From IMG/VR virus record IMGVR_UViG_3300045988_079613: a DNA stretch of 64,000 bases; one strand, 5' to 3'. Under the pieces are notes generated by a model that was given only the letters and a program-made list of their open reading frames with translations, ran no database searches and had not been told where the DNA came from. Shown in pieces: positions 23,515-25,340 of this stretch (the stretch's first letter is position 1; the number at the start of each line of letters is the position of its first letter). The position numbers and the translations under genes were made by a program. Source of the stretch: a virus.

Positions 23515-25340
23515 AATAACCGCTATATAAATACTATAATTATATCATAGTTCGAGAGGAGTAAAACTGTAGCGTAAATCACTCCGGCAGTCACAGGAGG
23601 AAGTTTTTAAGTACTACTGCGTCAGGGAGTTTGTGTTCATTTACACATAGCCCGAAAAAGGACAGAATCCGAGAATATGTTAGCTGCAACCACAGTGAGA
23701 TACACAAAAGGTAGGATAATAACTTATACTAGTGAAAAAGGTATAAGAAAACAGGAGAGGGTGAATAGCCTGTGCTGTTAATGTGAGAACCGTCTGGTGA
23801 TATTAAGAGTGAAGAACCCGTAATAAGGAGCAACAAGAAGATACCCTAATTACAAACTAATTCAAACGGAACGAAATCCGTATATTCGTATGCATTAATC
23901 AAAATGTGATTCAAAAAGGAATATAAACACGATGCTGAAACAAGAACAAAGGGTTCTTGGATAATCCCTTGGAAAAGGATTATCAAACAACATTATGGCT
24001 GACTAACGCAACAAGCGGGCTCCAACCTCGCTTCATACAAAAACGCAACTATGTGTCCTGATTGGAAAAATAGGCTAACTCTAGTGTTTTTATGATAATT
24101 GGTTCATAATATAAAGGGAGTAATTACTGATACTAATGTAAGGATAACCGTGTTATGGTACATACTTATACAAAGTAAAGATATGAAGGCTGGACATGCA
24201 ATGATCCGGGGAGTGAAGCTACATGCAGATCCAAGATCCGACTGATTACCAGGGAGCAGGAGCCAATCCTGTGCGCTACCGTAACTAGCGTGCCGCAAAA
24301 GAATTTACGTATAAGGGATGAGGCATATGAGATTGATGCCGTCTTTCAAGTCTAAAGTGACTCACGTGCTTATTCGTTCGTGTGAGTATAATTGAATGAT
24401 GAATGAATAGACAAAGATGTCTAAGCGGTTTGAGGGCGCAATAACCCTGATTCTAGTTGTCACATACCTTTAGCAAGTATGATTATGACATAAAATAATA
24501 CTAAGGAGAGGCTTTGAAACTCCTTCTAAAAAACAGCAGAGCTTATGTCTTTCAAGATATGTAAAGACTAGTTAATTATGAGCATCGCTTCTATCCTAGA
24601 AGAAGAGAAGTATTAACTAAAAAAACAAATAAGTAGCAGAGTAGGTGATGAGAGCTGCTGTGGGGTAGAATCTCACAACCAGAGACCGTTGTTCTAGATA
24701 TGAGGAATATTTACTACTTAAACTGAAAAGCTAAGCTGAATAGGATCAGCTATTGGTAAAATGTATCCTAAATTAAATTAACAAGATCCTTAATAGTCGG
24801 CTGTCTATTAAGCTAATTGGGAAGTTCAATGGTAGTACAGCGTTCTTAAACTTCTGTTGTAAGGAAGTAAATTACAAGTACGAGCCACCCCGACTGCCAA
24901 CCGTTATCGCTGACATTAGAAACTCCTAAAGTATATATCGCAAGTATGTACGTAAAGAGAACGCTGATTCGTTAATAACCTGTCGTCTATCACCCTGTCT
25001 CGGTAGATTAAAGGACGAAGTACTTAACTTGATAGTAATAACAATCAAGCAACAAGGAGACGATGAGAGGTGGAAATCCTCGTGTTCGCGCAGTTATAAA
25101 CAACAAATCCTATGCATGGTATGAGCGGGTCATGCTTTAAGCAATGAGCTCATGAGTTGGTAACGTTAGATAAACGACCGTAATTCTATGAATTTCGATA
25201 ATACGGAAATACCAGGTAGACTTACTTAGTCGATGATCTGTGTCTTTTATATTGCAACTAATAGCGATATAAAATAACGGTGAGGGGTGCGTTAAGCATC
25301 GAAAAAATTGAATCTTAACCGTCGAAACGGGACGTTAAAA
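23515..25340 (+). ncRNA. about 1.8-kb ORF-free, G+C-enriched, hairpin-dense island: candidate giant structured RNA(s)
   Basis: No plus-strand ORF of 60 aa or more lies between 23510 and 25567. Hand-counted 60-nt lines give 37-55% G+C, against 28% in a polB line. There are many perfect 6-8 bp local helices. Confidence 0.4.

Follow-up and report, generated by a model that had tools for sequence, protein, structure and literature searches.

We identified in this genome of a human-gut crAss-like phage an island that probably encodes, on the plus strand at 23545-25336, a large structured non-coding RNA of several domains, conserved in Suoliviridae and made as a single transcript that acts in trans (we give this reading a probability of about 60%; Table 1). 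The island combines the generic marks of a structured non-coding RNA, namely covariation on one strand, no coding potential and conservation across taxa. Selection acts on its base-paired fold and not on a protein product, and we are highly confident that it functions at the level of RNA structure; that it forms a single functional unit of ~1.8 kb has slightly better than even chances. The element is conserved across Suoliviridae, a family of crAss-like phages, is restricted to phages, and matches no described RNA family.

The island lies in a co-directional plus-strand block that runs from the sigma-factor to the DNA polymerase genes, the latter ~3 kb downstream in the replication-gene block. 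Within the gene block 11948-38824 of the window (the whole 64-kb stretch of DNA that was analyzed), the gap holding the island (23511-25566, 2056 nt) is the longest on the plus strand when ORFs of at least 60 aa are counted, the runners-up measuring 1355, 996, and 496 nt. Its longest ORF on either strand has 64 aa and is on the minus strand, in line with an earlier inspection of the letters alone (the sequence-only reading), which saw no plus-strand ORF of 60 aa or more between the stop at 23510 and the ATG at 25567. The longest stop-to-stop frames are 66 (standard code), 133 (TAG-to-aa), and 103 (TGA-to-aa) codons, against 88, 118, and 119 codons in shuffled island sequence, and the frames in 28 relatives' copies are likewise no longer than in shuffles under the three codes. 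Since the frames are no longer than in shuffles, recoding of TAG rescues no frame, as that reading had stated, and neither does recoding of TGA; 23545-25336 is non-coding under all three codes. Protein coding, which the same reading had named as evidence that would count against it, was not found.

The G+C content of the island is 38.5%, against 32.2% +/- 2.2% over all 1.79-kb segments of the 64 kb, the most G+C-rich of which starts at 23551. The hand counts made earlier were exact (0.500, 0.550, and 0.367 for the lines at 24001, 24241, and 24901, and 0.283 for the polB line at 28501), so the enrichment is real, but six points make a weak argument alone for what had been called a classic signature. 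Similarly, the helices of a region described as hairpin-dense do exist, but by minimum free energy (MFE) their density in the single sequence is not above chance: the plus-strand z-scores are -0.79 (23545-24420) and -1.54 (24421-25340), compared with -1.31 for the minus strand and a more extreme -3.07 for a coding control (21200-22100). Because the single-sequence MFE is no better than that of shuffles, the case for a structured RNA rests on covariation, and the helices are significant through comparative data only.

We aligned 28 diverged copies from Loutivirinae, with slid pairing partners and 500 shuffles as controls. The consensus has 69 helices with 320 pairs. Pairing is kept at 94.9% (against 36-42% with slid partners), two-sided compensatory changes affect 133 of the pairs (25-38 when slid), and the covariation score of 0.313 was reached by none of the 500 shuffles (at most 0.066 in controls). 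G-U pairs number 946 and A-C pairs 207, and RNAalifold gives -509.8 for the plus strand against -452.9 for the minus strand. An independent second group (Oafivirinae and relatives) yielded 453 pairs, 90% of them canonical (33-43% when slid), with 182 covarying pairs (37-58 when slid) and 1610 G-U against 332 A-C; the consensus energy is better on the plus strand in both groups, and all full-length covariance-model matches are on the gene-sense strand. These pair counts supersede a first scan for covarying stacks, which discriminated poorly (21 stacks vs 4-13 in column shuffles). Collecting homologous regions, as the sequence-only reading had proposed, therefore revealed plus-strand covariation in two independent groups and across subfamilies, rather than the lack of conservation or covariation that would have spoken against it. 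The five helices it named all exist, and four keep their pairing with compensatory changes among relatives; the fifth, 24789-96/24805-12, is part of a lineage-specific insertion, with only 58% pairing over the whole alignment.

Compared with other Buchavirus species, the island has a nucleotide identity of 0.73-0.81 over its full length, equal to that of the best-conserved neighboring genes and far above that of the genes for the 507-aa (0.51-0.53), 215-aa (0.48-0.50), and 192-aa (0.58) proteins; for the 507-aa protein, amino-acid identity is only 39-47%. By contrast, conservation does not extend over the whole of another ORF-free gap in the window (12521-13875). All five Suoliviridae subfamilies have an unannotated gap of 1.85-2.5 kb in the corresponding syntenic place, and within it a covariance model of the 3′ core (289 positions and 44 base pairs, built from Loutivirinae only) matches the plus strand in every subfamily tested. 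The E-values are 3e-30 in Bearivirinae, 8e-14 and 5e-4 in Boorivirinae, 1.6e-11 and 9e-7 in Uncouvirinae, and ~1e-9 to 1e-16 for most Oafivirinae, with weak matches in cr273_1 (1e-3) and Bohxovirus (2e-3). In the cross-subfamily alignment of this core, 87.7% of pairs are formed (28-59% when slid), and 32 of the 44 pairs show two-sided changes. In 44 of 46 distant copies, the 5′ and 3′ cores keep a constant distance of ~1340-1440 nt; the central ~1 kb allows no alignment between Loutivirinae and Oafivirinae. The taxonomic spread in GenBank phages comes from sequence-level searches. A search of 185,579 species genomes matched only seven MAG contigs, four of which are ~100 kb long, the size of a complete crAss-like genome, suggesting mis-binned phage DNA.

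Table 1. Features of the island and its surroundings, in positions of the 64-kb window.
Feature	Coordinates	Strand	Remarks
Hatchet	15291-15416	+	Rfam cmscan
RAGATH-9	17082-17239	+	Rfam cmscan
RAGATH-20	17890-17987	+	Rfam cmscan
Flank hairpin	23495-99/23520-24	+	20-nt loop holds the stop codon (23508-10) of the upstream 142-aa gene
Whole structured-RNA island	23545..25336	+	~1.79 kb here; 1779-1941 nt in 28 Loutivirinae copies
5′ domain	23550..23780	+	alignment, consensus fold, pair counts
5′ domain, invariant strands	GTTCGAGAGGAG 23550-61; ATCCGAGAATATGT 23667-80; CAAAAGGTAGGAT 23705-17		
5′ domain, helices	23587-90/23617-20, 23622-36/23643-55, 23667-70/23714-17, 23683-86/23693-96, 23727-30/23740-43, 23751-55/23769-73	+	
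5′ core	23570-23850	+	common with Oafivirinae; nhmmer E 1e-9 to 1e-22 in Oafivirinae and Dulem virus 42
Domain 2	23784..24160	+	internal hairpins covary
Domain 2, predicted closing helices	23789-93/24155-59, 23926-31/24149-54	+	long-range, invariant
Domain 2, internal hairpins	23883-87/23919-23, 23941-47/23953-59, 23960-70/23975-84, 24014-19/24027-32, 24043-46/24053-56, 24075-88/24129-42	+	
Domain 2, invariant 18-mer TAACCGTGTTATGGTACA	24145-62	+	in at least 120 IMG/VR contigs
Domain 3	24161..24320	+	closed by 24161-71/24309-20
Domain 3, hairpins	24256-61/24267-72, 24273-78/24286-91	+	
Domain 3, variable hairpin	~24205-24240	+	replaced or deleted in some lineages (alignment)
Domain 4	24322..24412	+	hairpin 24322-26/24336-40 and candidate pseudoknot
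Domain 5	24424..24905	+	possibly closed by 24424-32/24898-24905, span ~480 nt
Domain 5, hairpins	24433-36/24445-48, 24459-70/24475-89, 24504-08/24520-24, 24547-54/24560-69, 24741-46/24765-70	+	
Domain 5, poorly conserved stretch	~24570-24735	+	alignment
Domain 5, lineage-specific hairpin	24789-96/24805-12	+	
3′ core domain	24814..25105	+	conserved in all five Suoliviridae subfamilies
3′ core, conserved strands			GACTGCCAACCGTTAT, CTAAAGTAT-(GCAA hairpin), AGAACGCTGA, ACTGTCTC, GGTGGAAATCC, GTTCGNGCAG-TATAAAC
3′ terminal domain	25109..25336	+	4-6 covarying pairs in three of its helices
3′ terminal domain, helices	25120-26/25148-54, 25164-67/25173-76, 25177-81/25277-81, 25245-55/25264-74, 25291-25301/25309-19, 25320-23/25331-34	+	
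Downstream segment, outside the RNA	25345..25566	+	A+T-rich spacer, then conserved leader of the 215-aa gene
Three tandem 12-nt repeats TTATCARARRAT	25345-80	+	within the A+T-rich spacer
Leader 19-mer TAGTAGATTATGTGATTGA	25417-35	+	unique in the 64-kb window
Leader hairpin	25521-31/25534-45	+	directly before the ribosome-binding site and ATG (25567) of the 215-aa gene

Several helices of the domain map stand out in the alignments. In the 5′ domain, helix 23667-70/23714-17 covaries between subfamilies (ATCC/GGAT, GTTC/GAAC, and GCCC/GGGC), and the hairpin that it encloses shows four pair types. The two closing helices predicted for domain 2 never vary, so covariation neither supports nor refutes them. 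The closing helix of domain 3 (seven pairs, five with two-sided changes) is 99.4% paired. In the candidate pseudoknot of domain 4, 24360-65/24382-87 (100% paired, two covarying pairs) crosses 24368-79/24401-12, whose segment 24372-79/24401-08 is 95% paired with four covarying pairs. In domain 5, hairpin 24741-46/24765-70 is 100% paired and five of its six pairs covary; support for the ~480-nt closing helix is only moderate, given two covarying pairs and 88-92% pairing, and the hairpin motif GAGGGCGC..AACCCT, by which this helix could be tested, was not found in the copies of other subfamilies that were checked. The junction strands between domains rank among the most conserved sequences of the island. 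Structure is conserved from ~23545-23550 to ~25335, in agreement with the boundaries proposed from the letters alone (23515-25340); pairing and conservation end at ~25336, and conservation is lost past ~25340. The 5′ and 3′ ends of the putative transcript are predicted ones.

The hairpin over the upstream stop codon changes from AGCGG/CCGCT to AGTGG/CCACT (relatives L007 and L008) or TACGG/CCGTA (L006), as read from the alignment; it may show where the upstream message ends or be part of the 5′ flank of the RNA. A scan of the island for promoters and terminators gave internal sites not above chance, and the candidate promoter-like conserved strings that flank the RNA are each unique in the window. 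Searches of the flanking proteins against Pfam and PHROGs returned only an ECF sigma factor and a sub-threshold SecB-like match, and AlphaFold2 gave an unusable model (pLDDT 47.6) of the 215-aa protein encoded downstream; no partner protein emerged from these analyses. The downstream neighbor protein has records on at least 1000 contigs. The island is preceded, 5 kb upstream, by a tmRNA-like gene, and in relatives tRNAs lie 1-7 kb from the element, which is itself outside any tRNA array. Small structured RNAs occur upstream in these phage genomes, including Hatchet, RAGATH-9, RAGATH-20, RAGATH-22, RAGATH-7-assoc, and the tmRNA-like gene.

Running Rfam 15 cmscan on 23400-25600, a check that had been proposed for this region, gave nothing at the gathering score and only a chance snoRNA match at E<=10 (E = 8.3); the gaps of four relatives gave no family match either, and a full-text search of the literature found no description of the element. 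The sequence-only reading could not match the region to GOLLD or ROOL by eye, and the Rfam model of neither finds it here (GOLLD neither at the gathering score nor at E<=10) or in the four relatives' gaps. Structured RNAs of such a size are otherwise known in bacteria and phages only as rRNA and group II introns. The island is like them in length (1.5-3 kb), locally closed domains, and conserved junction strands, but rRNA and group I/II intron models do not match it even at E<=10 (Intron_gpI was detected elsewhere in a relative's genome). We rejected a group I or II intron: the ORFs on both sides are complete and have stop and start codons of their own, and with intact, separate flanking genes and no intron-encoded ORF the island is not an intron.

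GOLLD and ROOL, two large RNAs of phages, resemble the element most, but it belongs to neither. Like ROOL (Rumen-Originating, Ornate, Large; ~580 nt), the element is large, with many helices, is phage- or prophage-encoded, and comes from gut or rumen ecosystems, but it is roughly three times longer and ranges over a single phage family. Like GOLLD, which is encoded in phages or prophages and often near tRNA islands, it is a large, ornate, covariation-supported phage non-coding RNA, and the tRNA- or tmRNA-type genes in its neighborhood are a possible further likeness; unlike GOLLD, it has ~1.8 kb and is flanked by protein genes of the replication block rather than embedded in a tRNA array. Its carriers are virulent crAss-like phages that presumably infect Bacteroidota. 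OLE is a cellular RNA of ~600 nt from extremophilic Firmicutes that acts with adjacent Oap proteins; our element shares with it, and with HEARO/omega RNA and raiA, an intricate conserved fold interspersed with conserved single-stranded nucleotides, but is phage-encoded, does not match the OLE model of Rfam, and has neighbor genes without a Pfam or PHROG family except for the ECF sigma factor. This description of the OLE fold, in which the single-stranded nucleotides are highly conserved, is a published one (PMC9723947). Many GOLLD members exceed 800 nt, ROOL has many helices and pseudoknots and no known protein partner, both GOLLD and ROOL form homo-oligomeric cages made of RNA alone, and the functions of both are themselves unknown (PMC12286853); a catalog of phage structured RNAs holds motifs of 29-151 nt only (PMC10690425). 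Like the RAGATH RNAs and Hatchet ribozymes, the island is found in these genomes on the same strand of the early block, which shows a heavy investment of these phages in structured RNA; unlike those motifs of 100-200 nt separated by genes, it is an order of magnitude larger, and self-cleaving ribozyme and RAGATH models match only at 15291-17987, with none in 23511-25566.

The earlier term "giant structured RNA" holds as far as structured RNA goes; that it is giant, in the sense of a single 1.8-kb molecule, is only slightly more likely than not. The best-supported helices span at most ~160 nt, and one weaker closing helix spans ~480 nt. The strongest rival, less likely than a single unit but a serious contender, is a fixed array of about five to seven independent structured RNAs of 90-480 nt with their own roles, possibly processed from a common transcript. 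Nearly all strongly covarying helices are local, the island splits cleanly into domains, and helices over 500 nt have no covariation support; the two sequence cores are ~1 kb apart with a part between them that diverges freely between subfamilies, the 5′-most motifs were not found in Bearivirinae and Boorivirinae by motif search or nhmmer, and upstream in the same genomes lie series of small structured RNAs. Those upstream RNAs, however, are interspersed with genes, whereas the island is gene-free in every subfamily, with constant order, total length, and core spacing, highly conserved inter-domain junctions, internal promoter and terminator signals not above chance, and no known self-cleaving ribozyme inside. 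The fixed domain order and narrow length range favor one unit, as do the medium-range closing helices of domains 3 and 5 and the candidate pseudoknot. Helices over 1 kb show no covariation in Loutivirinae, including predicted ones such as 23668-80/25558-71 (whose partner is the start region of the next gene), which we rejected; in the Oafivirinae group, three candidates of over 1 kb look partly compensatory but are ambiguous, the alignment of the 5′ strands being uncertain. No convincing further stack of covarying pairs, whether long-range or pseudoknotted, came out of a scan for them, and the sole candidate among unpaired columns (24110-14/24857-61, five AU-rich base pairs) was judged to be chance.

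A cis element on a polycistronic messenger, whether leader, spacer, stability or processing element, that controls the 215-aa and 192-aa genes or terminates or insulates the upstream genes, is improbable. The island does sit inside a co-directional, operon-like block without a recognizable promoter or terminator of its own, and the hairpin over the upstream stop codon shows compensatory changes in the alignment; but ~1.8 kb and over 300 conserved pairs far exceed any known cis-regulatory leader, the RNA is better conserved than the genes it would regulate, and the downstream gene has its own A+T-rich repeat spacer and separately conserved leader hairpin. A role as DNA, such as a replication origin or a site folding as single-stranded DNA, is more improbable still: its place in the replication-gene block and the strand-specific tolerance of G-T wobbles would suit it, but the island has no repeats or iterons, the strand that folds is the operon's sense strand, and hundreds of covarying pairs over 1.8 kb with multi-way junctions and a candidate pseudoknot are unknown for DNA elements. 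The least probable reading, that the island codes after all (as recoded genes, many small ORFs, a decayed gene, or an intron remnant), is effectively refuted. The gaps of cr109_1 and cr113_1 do hold an annotated 145-aa minus-strand "hypothetical protein", that of Dulem virus 42 is annotated with many tiny ORFs, and TAG recoding is frequent in Suoliviridae (Yutin 2021, PMC7886860); against this, frames are of chance length under three codes, the annotated ORFs vary in position and strand among relatives, indels fall in hairpin loops while substitutions are pairwise compensatory, no group I/II intron model matches between the complete flanking genes, and a decayed remnant would lack family-wide conservation.

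Under the preferred reading of one large non-coding RNA, the domains would be transcribed as one ~1.8-kb molecule, perhaps excised from a longer polycistronic RNA, and this RNA would act in trans during infection as an architectural or assembly-forming RNA or a ribonucleoprotein scaffold, the mode of action now ascribed to GOLLD and ROOL. Its target could be the host translation or RNA machinery, to which the tmRNA-like gene of the region and, in relatives, the tRNAs are also directed. A more ambitious version, in which every Suoliviridae member makes one ~1.8-1.9-kb RNA that folds as a unit and serves as a new kind of RNA machine, whether a mega-assembly (RNA-only or RNP) or a large ribozyme, that diverts host translation or RNA metabolism during infection, is tentative, with the odds against it; an assembly or scaffold role in the manner of GOLLD or ROOL, by analogy with those RNAs, is somewhat less likely again.

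Non-coding RNAs of this large, ornate kind are rare, and the discovery of each class (OLE, GOLLD, ROOL, and HEARO) has led to new biology or structural principles. Here, a candidate with several hundred covariation-supported pairs has no detectable relative among 4227 Rfam families. The island has two to three times the length of GOLLD or ROOL; if it makes one molecule, this would be roughly double the size of the largest structured RNAs known from phages and, as a single ~1.8-1.9-kb unit, the largest bacterial or phage structured non-coding RNA known, rRNA and introns aside. The alignments and the 3′ core model are sufficient for designing cryo-EM or chemical-probing constructs. The Delta group (now Suoliviridae) is the largest group of the gut crAss-virome, with ~13-18% of crAss reads (Yutin 2021, PMC7886860); given this abundance and the wide record of the downstream neighbor protein, the RNA should be abundant in human stool metatranscriptomes. 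The element explains a conserved ~2-kb hole in crAss-like annotations, which has been left blank or filled with spurious ORFs, and, along with the genes for Hatchet, RAGATH, and tmRNA-like RNAs, it makes the early region of these phages an RNA-rich module.

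The island (23545-25336, plus strand) lies in a 2056-nt gap between genes (23511-25566), the longest plus-strand gap of a plus-strand gene block that extends from 11.9 to 38.8 kb; the region shares 96% identity with CrAssphage cr56_1 (Buchavirus faecalis; Crassvirales, Suoliviridae, Loutivirinae). The genes around the gap are, in order, those for an ECF-type sigma factor and for proteins of 124, 507, 129 and 142 aa, then the gap, then the 215-aa and 192-aa genes (Table). The sequence-only reading had called the region ORF-free, and indeed the longest open frame in the gap on either strand is 64 aa. 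Its statement that TAG recoding rescues no frame also holds, and extends to TGA: in the window and 28 relatives, stop-to-stop frames are not longer than in shuffles under the standard code, with TAG as sense or with TGA as sense. The four G+C counts it gave for single lines are all exact, and no other 1.79-kb interval in the 64 kb is as rich in G+C as the one that begins at 23551; however, the excess is modest (38.5%, compared with 32.2% +/- 2.2% for 1.79-kb windows). Similarly, all five helices that it named are present, but the two halves of the island fold no better as single sequences than dinucleotide shuffles (z = -0.79 and -1.54; reverse strand, -1.31; coding control, -3.07), so that hairpin density is not evidence by itself.

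Features of the early region and of the island (window coordinates)
Feature	Position	Strand	Remarks
Hatchet ribozyme	15291-15416	+	Rfam
RAGATH-9	17082-17239	+	Rfam
RAGATH-20	17890-17987	+	Rfam
tmRNA-like gene	18182-18587	+	ARAGORN; tag GNTSYVMDYTRLAA
ECF-type sigma factor	20091-20654	+	Sigma70_r2 and r4; PHROG 1740
5′ domain	23550-23780	+	
Domain 2	23784-24160	+	predicted closing helices invariant
Domain 3	24161-24320	+	closed by covarying helix
Domain 4	24322-24412	+	candidate pseudoknot, both helices supported
Domain 5	24424-24905	+	~480-nt closing helix moderately supported; interior variable
Universal 3′ core	24814-25105	+	
Terminal domain	ends ~25336	+	
Three tandem 12-nt repeats, TTATCARARRAT	25345-25380		in A+T-rich spacer between RNA and 215-aa gene
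Leader of 215-aa gene	25417-25566		invariant TTATGTGATTGA at 25424-35; conserved separately from island
DNA polymerase gene	from 28488 onward	+	beyond 215-aa and 192-aa genes

Evidence for a base-paired fold comes from comparison of relatives. A search with the invariant 18-mer at 24145-62 brought up at least 120 contigs in IMG/VR, from which we extracted 100 full Loutivirinae copies (87 unique; 28 clusters at 3% divergence); RNAalifold, applied to the 28 representatives with pairs at most 900 columns apart, gave a consensus of 320 pairs in 69 helices. In this alignment 94.9% of cells are paired, compared with 85.2% in shuffles and 36-42% in controls in which the 3′ partner columns were slid by 1-3 positions; 133 pairs show two-sided changes (25-38 when slid), and the covariation score of 0.313 (at most 0.066 when slid) was reached by none of 500 shuffles. 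The folded strand is the sense strand of the operon, since G-U cells outnumber A-C cells (946 vs 207) and the consensus energy is lower for the plus strand (-509.8) than for the minus strand (-452.9). An independent second set of 66 contigs, retrieved with a motif diagnostic of a divergent group (Oafivirinae, Dulem virus 42 and unclassified contigs), gave 453 pairs that are 90% canonical (33-43% slid), 182 of them covarying (37-58 slid), with 1610 G-U and 332 A-C cells. Conservation and covariation among relatives, whose absence the sequence-only reading had named as evidence against it, are present in both sets. The predicted closing helices of domain 2 are invariant and so offer no covariation test.

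Seven reference genomes of crAss-like phages align with the whole gap end to end, at identities of 73-96%, and either leave it unannotated or give it a non-conserved minus-strand ORF. Relative to other Buchavirus species, the RNA interval (0.73-0.81 identity) is level with the best-conserved neighboring genes and far above the 507-aa, 215-aa and 192-aa genes (0.48-0.58 identical; the 507-aa protein has an amino-acid identity of just 39-47%). Invariant blocks of 8-18 nt alternate with stems that change pairwise and with hairpins inserted, replaced or deleted as units. Conservation is no general property of gaps in this genome, because another ORF-free gap, 12521-13875, shows no such conservation over its full extent. 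Entire hairpins have come and gone; cr56_1, cr109_1 and cr113_1, for instance, have inserts of 24 nt after 23680 and of ~70 nt after 23863. Identity to cr56_1, 94-99% elsewhere, drops to 67-81% at 23600-24000, where identity to cr60_1 is 87-94%; this mosaic pattern suggests that Buchavirus species have recombined within the RNA gene. Inside the island, public annotations show a minus-strand “hypothetical protein” of 145 aa in cr109_1 (at 4548-4985) and cr113_1 (at 4546-4983), and a dozen tiny ORFs in Dulem virus 42 (8570-10685); these are probably spurious gene calls.

An unannotated gap of 1.85-2.5 kb with the same synteny (a ~130-150-aa gene on one side, two ~190-215-aa genes on the other) is found in all five Suoliviridae subfamilies: Loutivirinae (Buchavirus, Blohavirus, Buorbuivirus), Oafivirinae (Burzaovirus, Cacepaovirus, Buhlduvirus, Bohxovirus, Chuhaivirus), Bearivirinae (Afonbuvirus), Boorivirinae (Canhaevirus, Culoivirus) and Uncouvirinae (Besingivirus, Aurodevirus). 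Profile searches revealed two collinear sequence cores common to Loutivirinae and Oafivirinae (23570-23850 and 24845-25105), with a spacing of ~1340-1440 nt in 44 of 46 distant copies; the ~1 kb in the middle has structure in both subfamilies, yet resists alignment between the two. What Bearivirinae and Boorivirinae have in common with the window comprises 23722-24126 and parts of 24775-25179. A covariance model of the 3′ core, built from Loutivirinae alone, gave plus-strand hits within the gap in each of the subfamilies tested (E 3e-30 to 2e-3). In the resulting cross-subfamily alignment, which is biased towards structure because it was fitted to the model, 87.7% of cells are paired (28-59% slid) and 32 of 44 pairs show two-sided changes; helices 1 and 7 of the 11 are not retained outside Loutivirinae. 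Among 185,579 bacterial and archaeal species (one representative genome each), the 5′ core motif occurs in only seven contigs, all from MAGs. Four of these, at ~100 kb, are as long as a complete crAss-like genome and so are probably mis-binned phage genomes; the other three are shorter. The seven carry the MAG labels Gastranaerophilaceae, Sphaerochaeta, Intestinibacter, Lachnospiraceae, Bacteroidaceae and Segatella copri, of which Segatella and Bacteroidaceae are at most a weak hint of the host.

With a fold under selection on the sense strand, no coding capacity and retention across the whole phage family, the island is a structured RNA (probability about 0.93), as first proposed. The Rfam search suggested with that proposal places it outside all Rfam 15 families: none of the 4227 matched the island or its counterparts in four relatives at gathering score or E <= 10, although Hatchet, RAGATH-9 and RAGATH-20 were detected elsewhere in the window, so the island is not a member of the GOLLD, ROOL, OLE, intron, rRNA or RAGATH families. 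It is like GOLLD and ROOL in kind but differs in sequence and fold; those large phage-encoded RNAs of unknown function are now known to form RNA-only cages, and in GOLLD the 3′ region is conserved whereas the 5′ region varies (PMC12286853). Our full-text literature search, which was not exhaustive, found no description of the island; it is unmentioned in Yutin et al. 2021 (PMC7886860), and the motifs listed in the IMG/VR structured-RNA catalogue are all 29-151 nt long (PMC10690425).

Whether the island is one RNA or several is a closer question. We lean slightly towards a single RNA of ~1.8 kb: the domain order is invariant, the length stays within 1779-1941 nt, the spacing of the cores is constant, the strands between domains are very conserved, and no genes or transcription signals lie inside. 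An array of smaller RNAs, which we consider the less likely arrangement, would be consistent with the free divergence of the middle of the island and with the finding that no helix spanning more than ~500 nt has covariation support, but it fits poorly with that fixed layout.

The ECF-type sigma factor gene, five genes 5′ of the RNA, keeps this position across Suoliviridae, and its product could drive transcription of the island's gene block; a promoter motif for it was not identified, and no promoter- or terminator-like site in 22500-26500 rose above chance level. The tandem 12-nt repeats could be a regulator binding site or promoter element. A hairpin at 23495-23524 holds the stop codon of the 142-aa gene in its loop; relatives in Blohavirus and Buorbuivirus show compensatory changes in it. 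The leader of the 215-aa gene, with a hairpin (25521-31/25534-45) directly 5′ of the ribosome-binding site and the ATG at 25567, is conserved in three Loutivirinae genera, while the coding sequence after it is ~50% identical. The gap at 12521-13875 (1355 nt), the second-largest plus-strand ORF-free gap, is just 24% covered in the 96%-identical cr56_1; within it, a ~50-nt element at about 13163-13218 (AAAAACTCAATAACTTCCCAAGTCATTGAGGGCACCAG...), including the hairpin CTCAAT/ATTGAG, keeps 92-98% identity between distant subfamilies of Suoliviridae.

In relatives, this early block contains Hatchet, RAGATH-7-assoc, RAGATH-9 and RAGATH-22 as well as a group I intron, a permuted tmRNA and tRNAs, and the Suoliviridae early region is an RNA-rich module. 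By analogy with GOLLD and ROOL, the likeliest role, put forward tentatively, would be one in trans, whether architectural, in assembly or as a scaffold. Translation may be a target, since the early region has a tmRNA-like gene and relatives also have tRNAs and a ribosomal-protein-like gene. With the island, a new family joins the large structured RNAs of phages, one that is widespread in the human gut and readily testable; if it is a single molecule, its size would be without precedent.
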